A DNA stretch of 19,497 nt. It comes from a virus. Taxonomy: Duplodnaviria; Heunggongvirae; Uroviricota; Caudoviricetes. Made by a program: the position numbers and the translations under genes. Within the stretch, counting starts at the first letter, position 1, and every line of letters begins with the position of its first letter. Below the pieces are notes generated by a model. It was not told where the DNA came from. It saw only the letters and a program-made list of their open reading frames with translations, and did not search any database. Below are positions 1,927-19,497 of this stretch, one piece after another. The stretch is from IMG/VR virus record IMGVR_UViG_2600254985_000001; one strand, written 5' to 3'.

Positions 1927-2886
1927 TTATTTAATGAAGTAACTTCCGTTACCACGTGTTGCAATAGGTGTTTTACCAATATCTGGTCCCCACCAAGTAA
2001 TACTACCGTTTGTGTCTATGTCAATATGGAAAGAAGTCTCATGTCCAGCAAAATGACCAACAATACTTTGAACAACAGCTGGACGAAATTCTTTATCTAC
2101 CCATGGTCCAGACATTTTAATGCCAGCTTTTGTAGTTGATACACTACCAAAGAGTCTAACAATTACTAAATCATCGTTCTTTTTAGTGAATTGCAACTGC
2201 ATACCATTTCCAGTTTGAATTGTCAACATTTGAGTTGGAACATCGATTGTACCTCTAAGTGATATATCATTTGCATTGATTGAACCTTTAAGCGATAAAT
2301 TATTTGCGTTGATTGAACCTTTAAGTGATAAATTATTTGCATTGATTGAATCTTTAAGTGATAAATCGTTTGCGTTGATTGAACCTTTAAGCGATAAATT
2401 ATTTGCATTGATTGAATCTTTAAGTGATAAATCGTTTGCAGAAATACTATCTAAAGTACTAGCCTGAAGAATTGGCTTAATGCTTGTTACACCAGTTCCT
2501 GAAGTCGTAACAACATCAAAACAAACTTTCAAAACGCCAGAACCGTTGTTTATATCAACACCGTTACTATTATTTGATGTTTCTGCTGATAAACTTACAG
2601 GGTTTGCTGTTTGCGTTAAGTCAATATTTGCATGGATATAATTAACTGCATTACCTTTTAAGGCAACAGTTTCATTCAATAGTTCAAAATACCTCCCGCC
2701 TGCAACGATTGATGTGTTAACATATTGCACGTTAAGGGCTGTATTTAATGGACTTTTCCAATCTTTGCGCCTAATTGTTCTATAGCCCATTCCAGTCAAC
2801 ATCATGTATAGTTTTCCGTCATTATTAGAACCGACTGGAAACTCTGTACCATTTGGACTGAAAAACGTGAAGTTTTTAATTGTCAT
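1927..2886 (-). CDS. rbp: receptor-binding protein (RBP, 936/p2-type) with a repeat-expanded neck
   Basis: 319-aa ORF in the RBP position (last structural gene before the holin). Its N-terminus ([11 protein letters not shown]...) and C-terminal region are consistent with my recollection of p2-type RBP shoulder and head domains. AAAGG ribosome-binding site 7 nt upstream of the ATG at 2884..2886. Confidence 0.8.
2239..2451 (-). repeat. in-frame 33-bp tandem repeats (about 6 units) encoding 11-aa units [11 protein letters not shown] / [11 protein letters not shown] within the RBP
   Basis: Directly visible: near-identical 33-bp units repeated head-to-tail. The translated RBP reads ...[68 protein letters not shown]... 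(residues about 146..216). Confidence 0.9.
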
Positions 2887-3184
2887 TTTTAACCTTTCTT
2901 GAAATTATTTCCGCTTTATCTAAAACTGGGTTATCAGTAATTGATAGCTCTAACAATCTAAATTTTCTACCGCCATAAGGATAACCACCAATTGATACAA
3001 ATTGTCCGACTTCATACAAGAGCGTGGTCTCGATTCTAAGCGTGTTTTTACTATTATAGTACACTTTACCTTGCAATAGTTCTAAGTGGTCTTTACGAAG
3101 CTCTCTATGCCCTTTAAAGCTATCTATTCTATATTTGTCGCCATAAGTAGCTACATACTCATATAACATTCGGTTTGTCTCCAC
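2876..3184 (-). CDS. hypothetical structural-module protein between Tal and RBP (102 aa)
   Basis: ORF in the conserved position between Tal and RBP. Overlaps the Tal 3' end and the RBP 5' end, a compact arrangement typical of a phage late operon. No recognisable motif. Confidence 0.5.
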
Positions 3185-4286
3185 TTCCTACAAAAATAAG
3201 TCTATCATTGAACTCTGTTTTAACTCTATCTGCTATATATCCTGAATATAGCTTGCCCTCGTACCAAATATCTACTAAGTCATTAACATACAAAGGAAAA
3301 AGTTCATTTTGATTAAAGAATAACCTTGTGACGATTGTAGAGGGAGAAATTTCAACCTTAATAGTAGACAACTCAGGAGGGTTTCCGTGGTCATCTCTAT
3401 CATAAAACAATGTTTTGGTTGTCCTTACATCTGGCAAGTCTGTTCCGTCTCCATGATAAGTGCTATAATCAATGACATCTCCGTTATTTTTTGCTGTGTA
3501 CATTTTAGGAGGGTCTGTGTAGTCATCTGTTGCTTTATTTTTAACGAACACAACAGCAAAATTATAAGCTGAACGTTCTACTATTGTTTCCGTGTCCATT
3601 GTCACACTTTGCTTAATATCTACCCTTGTCGTGATTCTTTTTCTATTCCAGTTTCTTGAAGCAAAGTTAATGAATAACAAGTTTCTAGGGTCTGTTTCAG
3701 ATGGAGCGTGTTGAATGGTTGTAGTTGGTTGAAATTGAACCTTGGAAAATATCCTTTTTGCTACATCATGAGCTGATGAAGTTTCCGCTTTACGATTAAT
3801 CGTAGCCTTTCCAGCAAAGATACTTGAATCAAAGAAATAACCATAACTCATTAAATTATTTTTATTAGGGTCAATTAAATAATTAATTATACCAGAGTTT
3901 GTCTTTTTGGCTATTGCGTTTGGAACGTCAAGACTTTCAATCATTGCCCAAAAGTAGTTTTTTAACGTAGCTTTATTACTTTCGTCTACATCGGTCACAA
4001 GGTAAACCATATCTAAATTCAGTTTTTTCCTCTTACCTAGAGCTTCTTCAATTGGAACAACTTCAGGAAAAAGTACTTGAACAATATCGCCAACTTCTAC
4101 CGAAACGGTCAATGTAGCTGATGAAGTGTAAAGATAGCCTGTTTCCCACAGTTCGTAATCAATAACTTGACATCTTGCCTTTGGTATTGGAAGGCCTCTT
4201 TTTTCTTTTTTACCATTAGGCATTCTGAAATCAGATATATTGTAATAGTTAGGGTTAAAGTTATCATAAACGTTAGCTTCTAACAT
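3159..4286 (-). CDS. tal: tail-associated protein Tal (short form, no C-terminal lysin extension)
   Basis: 375-aa ORF directly downstream of Dit, with its start overlapping the Dit stop. The size matches my recollection of the short Tal of p2-like 936 phages. No peptidase or glycosidase motif noticed. Confidence 0.65.
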   Translation of the reverse strand: MLEANVYDNFNPNYYNISDFRMPNGKKEKRGLPIPKARCQVIDYELWETGYLYTSSATLTVSVEVGDIVQVLFPEVVPIEEALGKRKKLNLDMVYLVTDVDESNKATLKNYFWAMIESLDVPNAIAKKTNSGIINYLIDPNKNNLMSYGYFFDSSIFAGKATINRKAETSSAHDVAKRIFSKVQFQPTTTIQHAPSETDPRNLLFINFASRNWNRKRITTRVDIKQSVTMDTETIVERSAYNFAVVFVKNKATDDYTDPPKMYTAKNNGDVIDYSTYHGDGTDLPDVRTTKTLFYDRDDHGNPPELSTIKVEISPSTIVTRLFFNQNELFPLYVNDLVDIWYEGKLYSGYIADRVKTEFNDRLIFVGSGDKPNVI

Positions 4287-5182
4287 TAAATAAAGTCCGC
4301 CTTTCTCTTGATTTTAAGCTCTGCCTTACTTAAATTAACTAGCTCCATTTGACCTTTTTCAATTATACGAGTTCTGTATCGCTCAAAGTTCATTACAGGG
4401 AATAAGTTTAGTACAGTTGTACCCTTCCAGCCTTGATAAAATTCGTCATTTACATCTGTATTAATTAAAATATAATCTTGTACCTGTTCCGTCTTAAACA
4501 CAATTGCAGTATATTCGTTTCCAACATCGTCTAAAAATCTAACTCCAGCAGGTGTTTTAGGAAGTTTCGGATATAATACCCCCATAAAACTAAATATTTT
4601 TTCTTTTATTTCCCAACGGCTTAAACGGCCTATGTCACTTTCCCCATAATAAGTGTAAGAGGTTCCTTCGATATACTTATAGTCTCCTGGTGCGGTTCCT
4701 CCATAAATTTTAGACTTACCAGAAAGAACTTTACCATTTTCAATCATGTCAAAAGTTAAATTTTCGTAAGTATACCACTTTGTAACTACATCGAAAGTTA
4801 TCTTTTCGCTGAAAGTTCCGTTCTTACCGTAACCCTCTGTCTTTGTGACATCTGCTAAAGCTAAATCAGCATACACCTGAAAAATTTCTGTTTGATATTC
4901 AAGTGTAACGAATTTTTTGCTAAGAATATCGTTTACGAAGTCTTTCATTAATTGATAATTTTCTTCTAAACTTTCTCCAAACGTTTCTAGCTTAAACTCT
5001 ATTTGTGGTTGAGTAATTGAGCGTTTTCCCATTATTCCAATACCATTACTTTGCCAGATGTTATTAGTTGATTGTAACCCTAAATTAGAGGGCTGGTAAA
5101 ATCTAACTTTTCCATTTGTAACGTCCCAAACTTTGTCGTCTGTTCCGTCTAAGTTAGTATGTATTTTATACTGTCTTACCAT
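4286..5182 (-). CDS. dit: distal tail protein Dit
   Basis: 298-aa ORF immediately downstream of the tape measure gene (start overlaps the TMP stop). Canonical Dit position and size for 936-group phages, with no obvious inserted domain. Confidence 0.65.
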   Translation of the reverse strand: MVRQYKIHTNLDGTDDKVWDVTNGKVRFYQPSNLGLQSTNNIWQSNGIGIMGKRSITQPQIEFKLETFGESLEENYQLMKDFVNDILSKKFVTLEYQTEIFQVYADLALADVTKTEGYGKNGTFSEKITFDVVTKWYTYENLTFDMIENGKVLSGKSKIYGGTAPGDYKYIEGTSYTYYGESDIGRLSRWEIKEKIFSFMGVLYPKLPKTPAGVRFLDDVGNEYTAIVFKTEQVQDYILINTDVNDEFYQGWKGTTVLNLFPVMNFERYRTRIIEKGQMELVNLSKAELKIKRKADFI

Positions 5183-8172
5183 TAAGCCCTCCCTAGTTCA
5201 AATTCTCGTCTGATTGCACGCGCTAAGTTAGAAACATCTTGACCAGCACCGCCTTGCACGTTAAATGTGTTATATGTTCTATTGTCGCTTGATACACTGT
5301 TAGTGCTTAAACCGTAACCGCTAGAAGATAAATTGACATCTGTTAAGCCTACTACCATAGAACCTTTGAATAGTCCGCCAACTTTACTTGCAACCCAATC
5401 AATTGAACCTTTGATATTTTTAATTGTATCTGTTACACCTCCAAGAACGCTGTCTATTGTATCTTTGACTCCTCCAAATATTCCGCTAAAGAAGTCGCCA
5501 ATGCCCTTAAATACTCCTGTTATTGCATCCCAAGCATTTGAAGCAAATTTACCAAAAGCCTCGAATACTCCGCTAACTATATCTTTAGCACCGTCAAACG
5601 CTCCCTTAAAGAAATCAGCTACTCCGTTAAATACACCTGAAATTGCATCCCAAGCTTTTGAAGCAAAGCCACCAAGAGCGCTAAACACTCCGCTAACGAC
5701 ACTGCGAACAGAATTGAATATGCCACTAAAGAAGCCTGAAACTGCATTCCATATTGATGAAACTACTCCCCAAGCGCTAGAAGCAAAACTTCCGATTGCA
5801 CTAAATACTGTTGAAACTACTGATTTTACAGCGTTAAATATACCGCCAAAGAAGCCTGAAACTGCATTCCATACGCCAACCAGTATATCCCAAGCTGAAC
5901 CAGCAAAGCTACCTATGGCGCTAAATACTGTTGAAACTATTGAACTAACTGCGTTAAATATTACACCAAAGAAACCTGATATGCCGTTCCACGCTCCGAT
6001 AACTAATTGGTAAGCACCGCGAATAATAGCCAATATAAGTTGGAATGCTAAATTAATTACTGATCCAACTAACCCAAATATAGATTGAAAGAAACTAATT
6101 AAAGGTTGGAAAGTTGTAACAAACCAGTTATAAGCACCTGTCACTAAAGAAGCAATGGTTGTAAATACAGTTGTAACAACATTTACTATTCCGTCCCATA
6201 GCCCTGTGAAGAACCCTGTAACTCCTGCCCATGCTGTTTGAATACCAGTAACAACAGTTGTCCATAAAGTAGTAAAGAATGTTGTTATTCCGTTCCAAAT
6301 ATTTTGAACACCTTGTACAATTCCACTGAACCAATCGACTAAGCCTTGCCAAATGCCTTTAGCTCCGTCAACTGCTCCGTTCCATATATCAGCAAACCAT
6401 TGACCAATACCGCTAAAGAATGAAACTATTCCGTCCCATGCACTCTTTAAGAAGTCTACGAAACTACCCCAAACCTTTTTACCTGTTTCGGTTTGAGTGA
6501 AGAAGTAAACTAAACCAGCAACAATGGCTGCGATTGCTATGCCAAGAGCCACGAATGGATTCATAGCCATTACAGCATTGAAAGCTCCTTGTATAATTGT
6601 ACCAGCTTCAACAACCTTATTATATATCTCGACAGCCTTAATGATTCCATCAATAACTTTCAAAGCAACGAATACACTAGCCAAAGCAGCTAAAGCTACT
6701 TTTAAAGTATCTATTGCGCTTTTACTTTCACTAATTTTTTGCAGAAAATCAGCTATTTTTTTCGTGACTTCTGAAAATTTACCAGCAAATACAGCTATGC
6801 TTTTTGCTACGTTATCTATACTTGTTGCGTTTTTTGTTGTTTCTGTATTTATTCCAATAAATGAATTTATGACATTCCCTATAATAGAAACTATGGAACC
6901 AAATGCACTTTTTATGCTATCCCAAGCCTCTAAAAATGCTAAAGTGGCTGCATTTTCTTGCAGTTTTTGAAACAAGTCTTGGAAATACTTAACTACATTT
7001 GTTACAGCTTTACCAGCACTTTCGCCCCAGTCAGACATCTGGTCTATTAAGCCACTAATGATAGGTGTTAAAGCGTTCAAAGTAGGCACTAAAGCAATTG
7101 ACATTGTTTCGTTGAAGCTGTCCCACGCGTCCCCAATAGTTTTGATTCCACCGCCCGAACCTTTAGCCATTTTTTCCATAGCCTTGTTGAGCATATCCAT
7201 CGAAACAGCGCCTTTTGAAACAGCGTCATTAAAAGAACCGTATTGCTGTAATGAGGGGTTCATTTTCATAACAGTGTCTTTTAAAGAAGAACCAAGAGCT
7301 GTGTTGTTATCGGTTAATTGTCCAATATTTTCAGCCGTAACTTTACCAGCTGCCGACATTTGACCGTAAGACTGAACTACACCTTTAAGGTTTTCGCCAG
7401 TACCACCAAATGCTTGGTTAGCTTTTACTAATGCTTCTGTTTTACTGACCGCTTTTTTAGCGCTATCGCCTAAACCAATGAACGTTGTTGAAAGTTTTAA
7501 AGTATCTTCGGTATTTGCATTTGTATCTTTAGCAAGATTCTGCATAGATTTGCTTACATAGTCAAAGTCTTTTCCATTGCCTTTGAACTTCATTGTATTT
7601 TGCAATGAAATCATGGCTTTTTGAGTATCCATTGCGTTAGATACCCAGTCTTTTAAGCCGTTACCGACAGCACTAACAGCACTTGCACCGATTTGTCTGA
7701 ATGCACCAACAGCAATCTCTCTAAGACCGCTAAAGCGTGACTTCATGCCCTCAATTCCGCTATTAACGCCTTTAGTATCCATTTTAGCGTCAATGTTCCA
7801 AGAGCCTGAACTAATAGCACCCTCGACTTGCTTAATTTCGCCCTCTAGCCTATTAGCTTGTGTTTCTACTGTACCTAAATCTCTAGTAAGTTGTAGCCAT
7901 TTCTTTTGACCTGCTGACGTCCCTTTGTCAACCGTAGAAAGTTCTTCTTTTAATTTTGTTGCTTTGTCACGTGATAAGCCCAACTGCGTTTGTAAGTTCT
8001 TCTGCAATTGCGCCATTTTCCCGGTATTTGTGGGGTCAAGTTTTAGAGCTTCACGTAAGTTTTTAGCTTCTCCTCTAAGCCCTGACATTGCGGTATTAAC
8101 GCCTTTAAGTGAGTTCTCGAATTTCGTTGTATTACCGTATATCTCGACCTCAAATGTTGCATTACTTGCCAT
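5182..8172 (-). CDS. tmp: tail tape measure protein (TMP)
   Basis: 996-aa ORF. N-terminal coiled-coil-like region, central hydrophobic segments, and a C-terminal series of about 40-aa Gly/Phe/Trp-rich tandem repeats (GIFNAV.SVVSTVFSAIGSFA.SAW...). Its position between the chaperone genes and Dit is diagnostic. Confidence 0.9.
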   Translation of the reverse strand: MASNATFEVEIYGNTTKFENSLKGVNTAMSGLRGEAKNLREALKLDPTNTGKMAQLQKNLQTQLGLSRDKATKLKEELSTVDKGTSAGQKKWLQLTRDLGTVETQANRLEGEIKQVEGAISSGSWNIDAKMDTKGVNSGIEGMKSRFSGLREIAVGAFRQIGASAVSAVGNGLKDWVSNAMDTQKAMISLQNTMKFKGNGKDFDYVSKSMQNLAKDTNANTEDTLKLSTTFIGLGDSAKKAVSKTEALVKANQAFGGTGENLKGVVQSYGQMSAAGKVTAENIGQLTDNNTALGSSLKDTVMKMNPSLQQYGSFNDAVSKGAVSMDMLNKAMEKMAKGSGGGIKTIGDAWDSFNETMSIALVPTLNALTPIISGLIDQMSDWGESAGKAVTNVVKYFQDLFQKLQENAATLAFLEAWDSIKSAFGSIVSIIGNVINSFIGINTETTKNATSIDNVAKSIAVFAGKFSEVTKKIADFLQKISESKSAIDTLKVALAALASVFVALKVIDGIIKAVEIYNKVVEAGTIIQGAFNAVMAMNPFVALGIAIAAIVAGLVYFFTQTETGKKVWGSFVDFLKSAWDGIVSFFSGIGQWFADIWNGAVDGAKGIWQGLVDWFSGIVQGVQNIWNGITTFFTTLWTTVVTGIQTAWAGVTGFFTGLWDGIVNVVTTVFTTIASLVTGAYNWFVTTFQPLISFFQSIFGLVGSVINLAFQLILAIIRGAYQLVIGAWNGISGFFGVIFNAVSSIVSTVFSAIGSFAGSAWDILVGVWNAVSGFFGGIFNAVKSVVSTVFSAIGSFASSAWGVVSSIWNAVSGFFSGIFNSVRSVVSGVFSALGGFASKAWDAISGVFNGVADFFKGAFDGAKDIVSGVFEAFGKFASNAWDAITGVFKGIGDFFSGIFGGVKDTIDSVLGGVTDTIKNIKGSIDWVASKVGGLFKGSMVVGLTDVNLSSSGYGLSTNSVSSDNRTYNTFNVQGGAGQDVSNLARAIRREFELGRA

Positions 8173-8684
8173 TACATACCCTTTCTTTTACGCCTTTTCT
8201 CTTTTTCTTTTTCCTCTTTCTTTTTCTCTGCAATAAGTTCGATTATTTTATAAACAAGTTCTAGTTCCATTTCCATGAACTGTGTTATATCAATTTCATT
8301 ATTGCCCAAAACAGTCAAAAGTTCTAAAGTTTTATTTTCCCTTACAGTATCTTTCTTTTTCTTAATCAATGAACTAGAAGAAAAGAAGACTGTATCGTCT
8401 TCCGTTTCCTCTTTTTCTTTAATAAAAACAGTTTTACAGAAGATATTGATTAACTCGTTAGTTGTAGGAAGCTCTGTTTTATCATCTAAGGCGTTTTGCA
8501 TTCCTCCGTTACAATCTACCCAAAGTATCAATAACTTGTCTGTAAAGCTCTCCATTTGCTCTGTAAAGTCATCAGGAATATATCCAGCGACAAAAGAATT
8601 TTGTAGGTCTGCAAAGTCTTTTAAATCTGTAATAAAGTCTGAACCAGTTAGTTCTAAGTATCTAATTGCATGTTTTAAAATCAT
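8172..8684 (-). CDS. tail assembly chaperone-like protein (170 aa, acidic with a basic C-terminal tail)
   Basis: ORF immediately upstream of the TMP, with its stop overlapping the TMP start. GAAAGGA ribosome-binding site upstream of its ATG. Position corresponds to the gpG/gpT chaperone slot. Confidence 0.5.
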   Translation of the reverse strand: MILKHAIRYLELTGSDFITDLKDFADLQNSFVAGYIPDDFTEQMESFTDKLLILWVDCNGGMQNALDDKTELPTTNELINIFCKTVFIKEKEETEDDTVFFSSSSLIKKKKDTVRENKTLELLTVLGNNEIDITQFMEMELELVYKIIELIAEKKKEEKEKEKRRKRKGM

Positions 8685-16577: not shown

Positions 16578-16862
16578 CTACCATAAACTCACACCTTTCC
16601 CACGTTTATACTCGCTTGTCTTCTTGTTATGGCAAGACTTACAAAGGAGTTGTAGGTTATCAGGGTTCAGCGCTATTTTCCAATCATCAAGATTTTCCCA
16701 AGTTAGTTCTATAATATGGTCTACTTCGTATTTTTTAGCACCGAATGCGCCACATCTTACGCAAGTCATCTTATCACGTTGTCTTACATAATCACGGACA
16801 GCCAACCATTCTTTTTTATTATACCAACCACTTTCTCGAACTGTGTCAACATTATACTTCAT
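16578..16862 (-). CDS. HNH homing-type endonuclease (terminase-associated)
   Basis: 94-aa ORF with paired Cys and an H-N-H core ([48 protein letters not shown]). Overlaps the terL 3' end by about 11 nt. Confidence 0.85.
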
Positions 16863-18474
16863 CTGACACCGCCATTTCTAAAGCCATTGTCAAAGCAACA
16901 GTAGGGTCAATTTTATCTTTTTCAAGTTTTTTAGTATACATATAGTCCCCATTTTGTCCGATTTTAACAGCAGTATTATTTAAAGCCCACTGCATGACTT
17001 TTTGGTTATGGATAAGTTTATTTTCCGCTAACTTAGATTTTAATAGCTTGATATAGTCACTCATTGAGAAACCTTGTCGAATTGCTCTTTGGTTGTCTCC
17101 ATCTTTGTCAAAGAAATAACGCTCAATCAGCCCTTTTAAAATTTCATAGCGAGCTGGGTCGTATCCGACTTTTCTAAGTCTGCACCCTGTTTTGGTTCTA
17201 AAGTCATTAATATGCGGTATTAAGTCGTTCACATTGATGTATTCCGTATCAAGTAAGATTAGTTCGCCTCTGTCAACGAATTCAGTCCATAACTCTTGTT
17301 GTTCTGTGTCCAGTTGCTCATATTGAGACCGTACAGAGAAAGTTAGCGTATGGCTGTAAGTTTTACCCTCTAACTCACAAACGAACGATACAGCGGTTAA
17401 ATCGCCAATTAAGGATAGGTCAATTCCGACATAAGTTCTATTTTTATTAAATACAGATAAATTAAAGTCTGTTAGTTTAGTGTCTTGCGGAGTGAAGTAG
17501 TAAGCTGTATCCTGCATAGGTAAGCCCATATTAAACGCTAAGAACTTATTCTGTAACGCTGGGTCTCCTTGCGCAAGCTCGTACTCCTCAATAACTCCTG
17601 ACCACTTAGGAACATTGCCAATAAGTGGTAAAGCCATAGTCCAATTCTTTTTATCTTTGACCTGCTCATGATTTTCTAGCATGTAAAGCAAGCCGAATGA
17701 CCTATCATTGTAAAATTCTTCTTCTGATTTGAATCGTTCAACAAGTTTATCATAAAGTCCGTCGCGTTTAAGTCCGCCAGAAGTGATGTAAATACTTTGC
17801 CAGTTATCTTGTTTTTGACGTGAACCTTTATTAACTGACTCTGTTATATCCTCGCCATAGGTATGGACTTCATCAAATATATTAAGGGAACTGTTACCAC
17901 CTTGCGCTCGTAAAGTATCATTTGTTTGCTTTTTAAAAGTGGTTTTGAAAGACGTAAATTCTAGCCCTTGTTTTGTACTCTTGAAAATCTTGTTTTCATT
18001 GTACACTCTTAATGTATCACTTGCTTCCGTTTGATTCCTAACTTGGTCAAATACGTGTCTAGCCTGTGTATTATCGTATGCAATAACTAGACTTTCTCCG
18101 CCATATTGTCCGCCTAAAATCATCCAGTTAAGCACGCGCGTAGCCATTAAACTAGACTTACCTGATCCACGGCCTAAATTAAGAAAAATCTCATTAATTA
18201 GGTTGACTTGAACACCTTTTTCATCAACCATATCATAGCCTAACATTAACTCATACCACCATTTTTGTGTTGGAAGTAGCTCAATTTTCATCAGGTTACC
18301 AGTAGTCAGGTAGAAGTTGTCTTCTATCCATTCAATAGCTTGCGTAACACGGTCATAGCGATAAATATATTTGTTATGAATACGTATTTGCTTCTGAATA
18401 GTCTTGCGAATGTACTTATTAATAATAATGCCGTTTTCTTTGTTGTATTCCAACATTTTATTTAAATAATACAT
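16852..18474 (-). CDS. terL: terminase large subunit
   Basis: 540-aa ORF with a Walker A-like motif (LGRGSGKSS, around residue 100) and acidic residues in the C-terminal nuclease region. Lies downstream of terS. Confidence 0.9.
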
Positions 18475-18485
18475 TCATTCCCTTT

Positions 18486-18716
18486 CTATTCAAATACTGA
18501 TTGCAAATATTCATCTGAATATGGACACCAACCTTCGTCATCAGTCATTTCTTTTTTAAGTTGTTTCCAGTTTGAAAACTGACCAATAATAGAATCGTTG
18601 TCTCCACACGTCTCACAATAATCTTCAACTTCTTCTAATTCTTTTTCTGAAGTATTTTCTGACATCAGATAAAGTCCTCCGCCCAAATGGTCTTCAACTA
18701 CCCAATATTTTTTCAT
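18486..18716 (-). CDS. small acidic Cys-containing hypothetical protein between terS and terL (76 aa)
   Basis: ORF with an ATGA overlap with the terS stop. Contains CETCGD and WCPY, a possible small zinc-ribbon-like fold. No functional assignment. Confidence 0.5.
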   Translation of the reverse strand: MKKYWVVEDHLGGGLYLMSENTSEKELEEVEDYCETCGDNDSIIGQFSNWKQLKKEMTDDEGWCPYSDEYLQSVFE

Positions 18717-19237
18717 TCAAACCCCTCTGGGACTTTGATTTCTGGCGTTTTATACTTACTTAGCTTATAGTCGTCAAGTTCTTCAATTTTAGCTTTAAGG
18801 TCATGAGCACTTGATTCTTCCTGTTGCAATCTCCGCCATTCAGTAGGGTTATAAAGTTCAGGGTTTCCAGCCTTAGCAACCATCATTGCTACCAAGCTAT
18901 CTTTATCAAGTTCTTTCTCTTTAACCTTTACTTTTTCAACGTTTCCGTCAGCGTCATATATTGTTTCTGTTTCTTTTAGCGTTCTGACTGTCAGTTTGCT
19001 CGCTAAGGCACTTTCGGCTAGTTCTAATAGATTTCCCCTAGCAATGCTTTTAGCTTCGTCATACGCCTTTATATTGTCATCTCGCCACTTTCTAAAAGTT
19101 TTAGCCGAACAATGCAAACTGGTGTAGATTTCTCTGTCATTACAGCCTGATTCAATTTTATCAATGATTTGGCTAAAAAGCGGTTCTTCATACATCTTAG
19201 GTAAAATTGTGGGTCTGCCACCTTTTTGTGTTTGCAT
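18713..19237 (-). CDS. terS: terminase small subunit
   Basis: 174-aa ORF, first gene of the late operon, preceded by an AAGGA ribosome-binding site. N-terminal helix-turn-helix-like region and acidic C-terminus. Sits immediately downstream of a repeat-containing non-coding region. Confidence 0.7.
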   Translation of the reverse strand: MQTQKGGRPTILPKMYEEPLFSQIIDKIESGCNDREIYTSLHCSAKTFRKWRDDNIKAYDEAKSIARGNLLELAESALASKLTVRTLKETETIYDADGNVEKVKVKEKELDKDSLVAMMVAKAGNPELYNPTEWRRLQQEESSAHDLKAKIEELDDYKLSKYKTPEIKVPEGFE

Positions 19238-19311
19238 ATTATCCTTTCTTTTAAATGTGGTTATATCGTTTAAAGCCTATATTTTCGTTCCTGTGAGCGT
19301 TAAGTTAATTA

Positions 19312-19330
19312 GACTTAAATTATATCGTAA
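19312..19330 (-). promoter_or_regulatory. candidate late promoter -10 element (TATAAT on the minus strand at 19319..19324) upstream of terS
   Basis: Perfect TATAAT hexamer on the minus strand about 80 nt upstream of the terS start. No convincing -35 hexamer at 17 bp spacing. Confidence 0.25.
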
Positions 19331-19394
19331 TGATATAAACACGCTCATACGAGCCAAAATATTAGCATATAGCCATATAATTTCCTTTTTATTT

Positions 19395-19451
19395 GAGATT
19401 TAGCGAGATTTAGCGAGATTTAGCGAGATTTAGCAAGATTTAGCGAGATTT
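19395..19451. repeat. tandem 10-bp direct repeat array (GAGATTTAGC, five units plus a partial unit; the fifth unit has G->A at its first base)
   Basis: Directly visible: gagatttagc gagatttagc gagatttagc gagatttagc aagatttagc gagattt, in the non-coding region upstream of terS. Confidence 0.9.
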
Positions 19452-19464
19452 TTCTTTTTGATTT

Positions 19465-19497
19465 TTTGGGGGATTCGCAGCCGGGAGTCCTTTGTGC
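19465..19497. other. GC-rich segment at the window edge, candidate cos or packaging-site region
   Basis: GGGGGATTCGCAGCCGGGAGTCCTTTGTGC is strongly GC-rich against an approximately 35% GC background. It contains an imperfect inverted repeat (GGATTC ... GAGTCC) and sits just beyond the repeat array upstream of terS. Confidence 0.3.

Follow-up and report, generated by a model that had tools for sequence, protein, structure and literature searches.

When cheese fermentations fail because of phages, skunaviruses are the main cause, and, to our knowledge, neither the recognition of their DNA for packaging nor the switch-on of their late genes has been worked out biochemically. In lambda, the cosB element contains three dispersed 16-bp sites for the small terminase gpNu1 (R3, R2 and R1) together with an IHF site (I1) at which IHF bends the DNA. 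HK97, the best-studied cos phage of the TerS/TerL/HNH type, recognises a single site and not a row of repeats.

The cos of 936-type phages is the 11-nt sequence CACAAAGGACT (PMC6105707; PMC4759559), and the surrounding region carries five to six copies of the "AATCT" direct repeats D1-D6 (Chmielewska-Jeznach et al. 2018, PMC6105707, citing Parreira 1996 and Hejnowicz 2009). In the same description, R1-R3 are putative terminase-binding sites and D6 is a truncated R2 site in most phages (PMC6105707). Cloned sk1 cos fragments render plasmids transducible (PMC11381338); as cited in PMC7489543, Chandry 2002 likewise obtained transducible plasmids from cloned sk1 cos fragments. Repeats near terS have also been described as activator sites: in phage TP901-1, Alt occupies a repeat series that spans -76 to -32 ahead of terS (PMC3152322), and Gram-positive phages use direct repeats upstream of terS as targets of the activators RinA, Ltr and ArpU (PMC3753634). 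The pac signal of SPP1 overlaps the promoters PL1/PL2 and gene 1, and the SPP1 terminase represses its own synthesis (PMC6316719).

The repeat array at the cos end of the window

The window, by which we mean the whole 19,497-nt stretch of DNA analysed here (IMG/VR record IMGVR_UViG_2600254985_000001), corresponds, in reverse complement, to the left 19.5 kb of a Lactococcus Skunavirus. Its last 1.1 kb was 99.9% identical to positions 1-1097 of Lactococcus phage BM1, reversed, and the end region also matched 394 Lactococcus Skunavirus (936-group) records. All genes of the window lie on the minus strand, and its right end is the physical left end of the genome, with base 19497 (G) being the last base of the opposite genome end. 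From the genome end inward, the features are:

19486-19496, minus strand: cos cohesive end CACAAAGGACT, of the 11-nt 3' overhang type of 936-type phages; equals record position 1 of BM1
19451-19485, minus strand: right arm of an imperfect inverted repeat at cos (GCGAATCCCC, AATC core) and an A-rich R1-like box, CAAAAAATCAAAAAGAAA
19395-19451, minus strand: phased repeat array (D1-D6 direct repeats), six AATCT cores at exact 10-bp spacing
19380-19394, minus strand: R2-like A-rich box, (C)AAATAAAAAGGAAAT, directly after the last core
19348-19379, minus strand: conserved block TATATGGCTATATGCTAATATTTTGGCTCGTA, with a -10-like TATTTT directly before an invariant GGCTYGT
19285-19355, minus strand: stem-loop region, GAGCGTG...CGCTCAC in the window
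19238-19284, minus strand: highly conserved pre-terS block AAATATAGGCTTTAAACGATATAACCACATTTAAAAGAAAGGATAAT, terS ribosome-binding site included
18713-19237, minus strand: terS, small terminase subunit, 174 aa (PF07141, E 4e-121; PHROG 1437)
16852-18474, minus strand: terL, large terminase subunit
16578-16862, minus strand: open reading frame matching the HNH endonuclease annotated in BM1, the gene after terL

The 76-aa open reading frame that comes next after terS belongs to the family phrog_4501, whose function is unassigned, and the portal, protease and capsid genes come after terL and the HNH gene.

The initial annotation had described a 10-bp tandem array lying between a putative cos and terS. 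Both the array and its placement were borne out, as Tandem Repeats Finder and direct reading located it at 19395-19451, with cos at 19486-19496 and the terS start at 19237; this puts it 35 bp in from the cos end and 158 bp ahead of terS. Tandem Repeats Finder reported a period of 10, 5.7 copies, 95% matches, no indels and a score of 107, with the plus-strand consensus GAGATTTAGC, which reads GCTAAATCTC on the gene strand. The plus strand contains GAGATTTAGC four times exactly, AAGATTTAGC once and a terminal GAGATTT; in gene-strand order, AAAAATCTC and GCTAAATCTT are followed by four copies of GCTAAATCTC, and the AATCT cores start (minus strand) at 19450, 19440, 19430, 19420, 19410 and 19400. 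With at most one mismatch allowed, GAGATTTAGC was found eight times in the window against 1.42 expected, a number that none of 200 shuffles reached. AATCT occurs 36 and 41 times on the two strands of the complete genome of BM1, the closest relative, the chance expectation being about 0.1 cores per 60 nt, and the 30.6 kb of that genome hold a single run of at least three phased AATCT, which is this array.

The array in the window is the published D1-D6 repeat series of the Skunavirus cos region, and as such is already known. Genus, cos sequence CACAAAGGACT, AATCT core and location between the R1 and R2 boxes all agree; the window lineage has a homogenised GCTAAATCTC unit and is without 15 bp near R1, but nothing essential differs. 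No promoter or repeat feature is annotated in the region in the GenBank records of sk1, bIL170, 712 and bIBB29 or in 60 spread hits, and we came across no published binding or deletion experiments with the D repeats. Replication-origin iterons were considered and set aside: the putative origin of sk1 and its repeats are annotated at 24.6-25.9 kb, far from cos, and the array is unique in the genome.

Several other features were recorded along the way. Two further tandem repeats of the window lie within open reading frames of late genes, one at 2241-2440 (33/66-bp period, about six copies) in the frame 1927-2886 (minus strand), which sits at the position of the BM1 receptor-binding protein gene, and the other at 5717-5979 (120-bp period, 2.2 copies) in the 996-aa tape-measure frame 5182-8172 (minus strand). 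Upstream of cos in BM1, and outside the window, the adjoining gene encodes a 61-aa putative membrane protein, and tRNA-Trp and tRNA-Pro genes (BM1 29866-30077) lie between the middle genes and cos. In sk1, more than 1 kb between ORF54 and cos is annotated as non-coding, and small membrane-protein-like open reading frames are visible there. Finally, the record NZ_CP013273.1 ('Bacillus thuringiensis plasmid') is almost certainly contamination or a mis-assigned Skunavirus genome, because it is 100% identical to the window phage, a Lactococcus phage, over the cos-terS region; it is apparently the same as IMG/VR locus L002, both being 25,529 bp.

Conservation and variation of the array among skunaviruses

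We compared the region across 80 IMG/VR loci encoding the same TerS, 61 of which reach both flanks. A 10-bp-phased array was present at the equivalent position in all 61, with a copy number of 3-7 overall that changed by whole units. The suggestion that copy number may vary between isolates also held, since near-identical phages carried five (BM3), six (the window and APJ4) or seven cores (phage 96603). The 51 distinct arrays were built from 29 distinct 10-mers with a common AATCT core; exact cores numbered 0-7 per array (mode 5), successive cores were spaced by 10 bp in 170 of 189 cases, and the five spacer positions carried only 0.2-1.15 bits. At least three exact cores were found in 48 of these 51 arrays, and the three exceptions were GC-rich arrays in which the cores are degenerate and the 10-bp period is kept.

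The arrays differed considerably in make-up. Some are homogenised (TGCTAAATCT), the sk1-type array consists of six different units that have only AATCT in common, and a GC-rich group (CGCAAAATCT, CGCCAAATCC) occurs within a genome of 35% G+C. In six loci (L024, L025, L034, L063, L070 and L077), the first ~100 nt after cos are GC-rich, with CCCGGCCGCGCCCCGCCGCGGGCCGCAAAAAGGCGCTTTTTGCCGC and CGCCAAAGCC units, and this sequence replaces the cos-proximal box and the left part of the array and keeps the 10-bp period. Relatives with 69% TerS identity carry four to five TGATAATCTC units in phase between different flanks. L085 (81% TerS identity) has only degenerate TATCT cores, and L088 (53% TerS identity) has no AATCT array and keeps the cos-proximal R1 box and the downstream block; the putative recognition helix of its TerS is conserved. 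At the other extreme, one metagenomic contig (L061) holds at least 16 array units; this contig starts with an adapter before the units, which may be an assembly artefact. The Nextera transposase adapter AGATGTGTATAAGAGACAG was seen at contig ends in L017, L020, L023, L032, L061, L063 and L068 (metagenome 3300045988) and also in L091 (Logan assembly, run SRR17045442), indicating that the reads were assembled with their adapters still attached.

Selection for protein sites on the same face of the helix is expected to conserve the core, leave the spacer free and fix the helical period, as seen here, and slippage alone would not give this pattern. Judged by its sequence, the array is a selected, phased series of putative binding sites and not a chance satellite. 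The 29 units that share core and phase with near-free spacers speak against a neutral microsatellite or VNTR. Another reading is that the array is a slippage-prone minisatellite that acts as a length-tolerant spacer and has no function of its own. The gain and loss of whole units between near-identical isolates, the contig with at least 16 units and the shrinkage of arrays on plasmids (see below) would fit such a spacer; however, even degenerate six-unit arrays keep the AATCT core and the 10-bp phase, 48 of 51 distinct arrays have at least three exact cores and the GC-rich exceptions keep the period, and the array is conserved at 69% TerS identity despite different flanks. We consider a functionless spacer very improbable.

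The periodicity could also be read as architectural, with phased A-runs that bend the DNA, or a site for a host nucleoid protein, folding the cos region in place of any sequence-specific phage protein; IHF bending of lambda cosB is the known example. A-runs do recur once per turn, and a wedge model, validated with phased A-tracts for which it returned about 130 degrees, assigned a moderate curvature to some unit types, with 94 degrees per 50 bp for CGCAAAATCT and 76 degrees for the sk1 array. The window unit, in contrast, reached 45 degrees per 50 bp, a value at the 86th percentile of the window that 14% of shuffles also reach, and curvature varied widely by unit type while the TCT of the core is conserved, although a bend could do without it. 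A purely architectural element strikes us as quite improbable. Intrinsic curvature as the selected property was rejected as the main explanation, given a window value within the shuffle range and its variation by unit.

We also followed the elements that flank the array. The arms of the inverted repeat at cos are imperfect and were identified by eye; an exact inverted-repeat search around cos, with zero mismatches, found nothing. Between sk1-type and window-type phages, AATC is conserved inside an otherwise divergent arm segment. The right-arm core is GAAAATCTC in sk1-type phages, and the left-arm core in other phage types is GGAGATTTTC (the reverse complement of GAAAATCTCC). From the right-arm core to the first array core is 40 bp, or four turns, in sk1 and at the matching position of other non-window types. 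On the far side of the array, the R2-like box is a direct repeat of the R1-like box; phages of the sk1 and window types have it, and most others do without it.

Between R1 and the array, 15 bp (GTTTTAGCT plus 6 bp) are missing from the window lineage, and because of this gap next to R1 its array is offset by 5 bp, half a helical turn, relative to cos when compared with other skunaviruses. On account of this shift, a strict lambda-type cosB geometry is unlikely for the array. The phase of the array to the downstream block was 9/0/1 (mod 10) in 63 of 63 distinct loci, the shifted lineage included; in sk1-type and window-type phages the array lies 12 bp further upstream of this block. The initial annotation had put the repeats forward as TerS sites, functionally like cosB, or as late-activator sites. 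The part of that proposal that survives comparison is a constrained, helically phased array of sites; the strictly lambda-type part is weakened by the 5-bp shift relative to cos, by the array-less relative with 53% TerS identity and by the array-poor cos copies of plasmids.

The downstream leader region and its plasmid copies

The conserved block downstream of the array contains a -10-like hexamer that is TATAAT in the relative L088 and TGTTTT in two phages; TATTTT or TATAAT lies 27-39 bp downstream of the last core. A consensus promoter scan and a manual comparison of three -10-like candidates yielded none conserved enough to assign. In the adjoining stem-loop, compared over the window and L001-L091, the closing stem and the flanks GGCTYGTRAG ... 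CTYAGRA are kept, and the interior is taken up by one or another of at least six unrelated sequences. In the common-type stem-loops (41 distinct), two of the nine stem positions are mostly G.U, alternating with A-U or G-C. This alternation suggests an RNA structure on the late-gene (sense) strand, and the region is therefore probably transcribed; an Rfam search of 18900-19497 gave no match.

These features bear on the possibility that the cores are putative sites for a phage late-transcription activator, which would replace the missing -35 of a single late promoter. The promoter would lie in the conserved block, as TATTTT followed by GGCTYGT, and the mRNA would start at the base of the stem-loop. 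Parreira 1996 reportedly described a 936-type late promoter that has a -10, lacks a -35 and needs a phage activator, a description that fits. Such a role agrees with the constant phase to the downstream block, seen throughout the 63 distinct loci and also in the lineage whose array is shifted relative to cos, and with the alternation of G.U with A-U or G-C in the stem-loop, as would suit a transcribed leader. Late transcription is not required of plasmid cos copies, and these are often without the array. Counted from a start 7 nt after TATTTT, common-type cores fall at about -39, -49 to -79, to be compared with the Alt repeat series at -76 to -32 (PMC3152322), and the direct repeats bound by RinA, Ltr and ArpU likewise lie upstream of terS (PMC3753634).

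Several observations count against an activator, however. At least two further sequences are -10-like, namely TATATATACCCCCCC upstream of cos and GATATAAC close to the ribosome-binding site; the hexamer of two phages is TGTTTT and not TATTTT; the array of sk1-type and window-type phages is displaced upstream by 12 bp; and the records of sk1, bIL170, 712 and bIBB29 annotate no late promoter here. Moreover, a PHROGs scan of 28 BM1 early and middle proteins found no RinA-, ArpU-, Alt- or sigma-like protein, and thus no known activator family among them (27 matched families of other or unknown function and one matched nothing). We regard late-activator sites as a possible, if doubtful, explanation of the array.

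If the promoter were instead upstream of cos, the repeats could act at the RNA level, as a target for a protein or RNase in the 5' leader of the late transcript. The adjacent stem-loop is apparently constrained as RNA, and RNase E-type processing of the late transcript is said to be mentioned in Parreira 1996. A 10-bp period is, however, a feature of the DNA helix, Rfam gave no match and no structure was predicted for the repeats, and we rank an RNA-level element as the least probable of the explanations considered here.

Copies of cos and of the leader were also found outside phages. A PLSDB search indicated that 28 dairy Lactococcus plasmids carry parts of the region; the majority measure 3-9 kb, are non-mobilizable and belong to the RepB+HsdS type, with a pND324-type ctRNA, HsdS being a type I specificity subunit. 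Nine were fetched (L099-L107, which are pJM2H NZ_CP121081.1, pUCCL627E NZ_PP589671.1, pAW601 NC_025005.1, pDRC3F, pLd12, p1196E, pB26F, pW34D and pLd6). Eight of the nine contain exact CACAAAGGACT with its flanks, in 15 copies and 1-3 per plasmid, for example at L099:858-868 and at L101:843, 1934 and 2949. Across the 15 copies, conservation was 0.86-1.0 from -20 to +60 and about 0.5 beyond +70, and the stretch that corresponds to 19451-19485 of the window, with the inverted-repeat arm and the R1-like box, is part of what all 15 retain. The AATCT cores that follow the plasmid cos numbered 5, 3, 3, 2, 2 and 2 in six copies, one in seven and none in two. Papers on pLd6, pLd12, pAW601 and the lactococcal plasmidome mention no cos site, and an older report may exist.

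The phage leader segment additionally has homologous modules in the plasmids, 76 in total and 27 of them distinct, extending from the last two array units through the GGCTTGT block and the stem-loop to ATATAGGCTTTAAAT. In Rfam, the plasmid modules match only the replicon RNA ctRNA_pND324. Tandem module arrays occur in L106 (pW34D), L100, L101 and L104, with a period of 96-158 bp and up to 29 copies; pW34D devotes about 6 kb (2574-8530) to 138-bp tandem modules and has no cos. The most amplified module is without TATTTT and has two cores out of the phage register.

The plasmids may be natural cos plasmids that hitch-hike on phage packaging, and the tandem modules could titrate a phage late factor as a decoy or sponge. 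Should phage-mediated transfer be the reason why the plasmid cos copies are kept, the array would lie outside the minimal packaging signal, which in turn would favour a transcription-related or accessory role. Taken further, the array might not be a packaging signal but the upstream, activator-binding part of a modular late-leader cassette that can be separated from cos and is made up of the cores, the GGCTYGT block and the stem-loop in this order; the pND324-type plasmids would have captured both cos and cassette. The plasmid cos (-20 to +60) would then probably be kept for transduction by an infecting phage, and the leader module, amplified up to 29 times, would be a possible late-factor sponge; hitch-hiking or decoy plasmids of this kind would be comparable to cos-type phage-inducible islands and to 'Per'-type resistance. 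We judge a separable leader cassette of this sort to be unlikely.

Candidate TerS sites and comparison with known systems

We infer that an oligomeric DNA-binding protein with sequence specificity recognises the array as a series of sites on one face of the helix. As for which protein, we tentatively favour TerS, with the cores as accessory, cosB-like small-terminase sites, over a late activator. Each site would consist of a 5-bp AATCT core per 10 bp with a free 5-bp spacer. TerS would first engage the cos-proximal site, composed of the inverted-repeat arm and the R1 box and carrying the same AATC core, and further TerS subunits or oligomers would spread cooperatively along the phased cores. 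TerS on the array would then form a cosB-like nucleoprotein platform on the first-packaged genome end and would help to recruit and position TerL and the HNH protein at cos. The array would be an accessory, affinity-raising element rather than an indispensable site of fixed geometry, and for this reason the number of units (3-7) and the half-turn register relative to cos could change.

Several lines of evidence are consistent with TerS sites. The array lies 35-50 bp inside the terS-carrying end, which is the cosN-cosB-Nu1 order of lambda, and it is the only phased AATCT run in the 30.6-kb genome. The core appears to be selected (29 10-mers, 170 of 189 spacings), degenerate sk1-type and GC-rich arrays keep the phase, and the array persists, as TGATAATCTC, at 69% TerS identity. 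Terminase must act at the nick site, and the inverted-repeat arms on its two sides contain the same core. Published descriptions list the repeats alongside the putative terminase sites R1-R3 (PMC6105707), and cos plasmids are transducible. The AlphaFold model of TerS predicts with confidence an N-terminal helical domain, residues 10-70 forming a helical bundle in a model of mean pLDDT 65. Comparison of TerS with the PDB, by sequence and by fold, gave no significant match (best fold E-value 0.3); the weak, non-significant fold matches were to HTH domains and Sf6 gp1, both at E 1-2. As a guide to the geometry of the sites, the structure was uninformative given this result.

Other observations pull in the opposite direction. 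The cores of the window lineage are half a turn out of register, and yet its isolates are abundant. L088 keeps R1 without an array and L085 has only degenerate cores, natural plasmid cos copies are conserved from -20 to +60 only and most have 0-2 cores, and the phase of the array to the downstream block is at least as well kept as that to cos. HK97, moreover, manages with a single site.

TerS bound to the array might also serve two ends, nucleating packaging and feeding back on the transcription of its own operon, because the packaging signal, as proposed, overlaps the late promoter. The array has the cos-proximal site as its neighbour on one side and the conserved -10-like block on the other, and SPP1 provides the parallel, with pac overlapping PL1/PL2 and gene 1 and a terminase that represses itself (PMC6316719). 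The argument is, however, purely by analogy, and we consider such dual use improbable.

Since the repeat is a known landmark, finding it again changes little. What the comparison adds is an invariant AATCT at a 10-bp phase, the half-turn shift relative to cos and the existence of natural plasmid cos copies without the array. A role as TerS platform would make the array an example of multi-site small-terminase loading in a Gram-positive cos phage; if it is a late-activator site, it would point to the activator. The plasmid observation may matter more in practice, for the phage-mediated spread of restriction-specificity plasmids, and it also bears on a possible decoy defence in starter strains.

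Set beside the systems described above, the array resembles lambda cosB in that repeated elements separate the nick site from the small-terminase gene on the first-packaged end. Unlike the three dispersed gpNu1 sites, it comprises 3-7 contiguous 10-bp units that are putative sites, is without a predicted strong bend and has a register to cos that is not fixed. It shares with the Alt sites of TP901-1 a lactococcal host genus and direct repeats just upstream of terS, and the Alt footprint of -76 to -32 would match the position of the array if TATTTT were the -10, late promoters of the Alt/RinA/Ltr/ArpU type being without a -35 element. Unlike the Alt, RinA and ArpU systems, the Skunavirus repeats have cos immediately upstream, and a homologue of these activators was not detected among the proteins examined. 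The pacL and pacR boxes of SPP1 and the pac hexamers of P1 offer a further likeness, with several short repeats beside the cleavage site; those repeats are bound by the small terminase or by PacA, and the binding of the array is putative. SPP1 and P1 are, however, pac (headful) phages with repeats on both sides of the cut, unlike the one-sided array of this cos phage.
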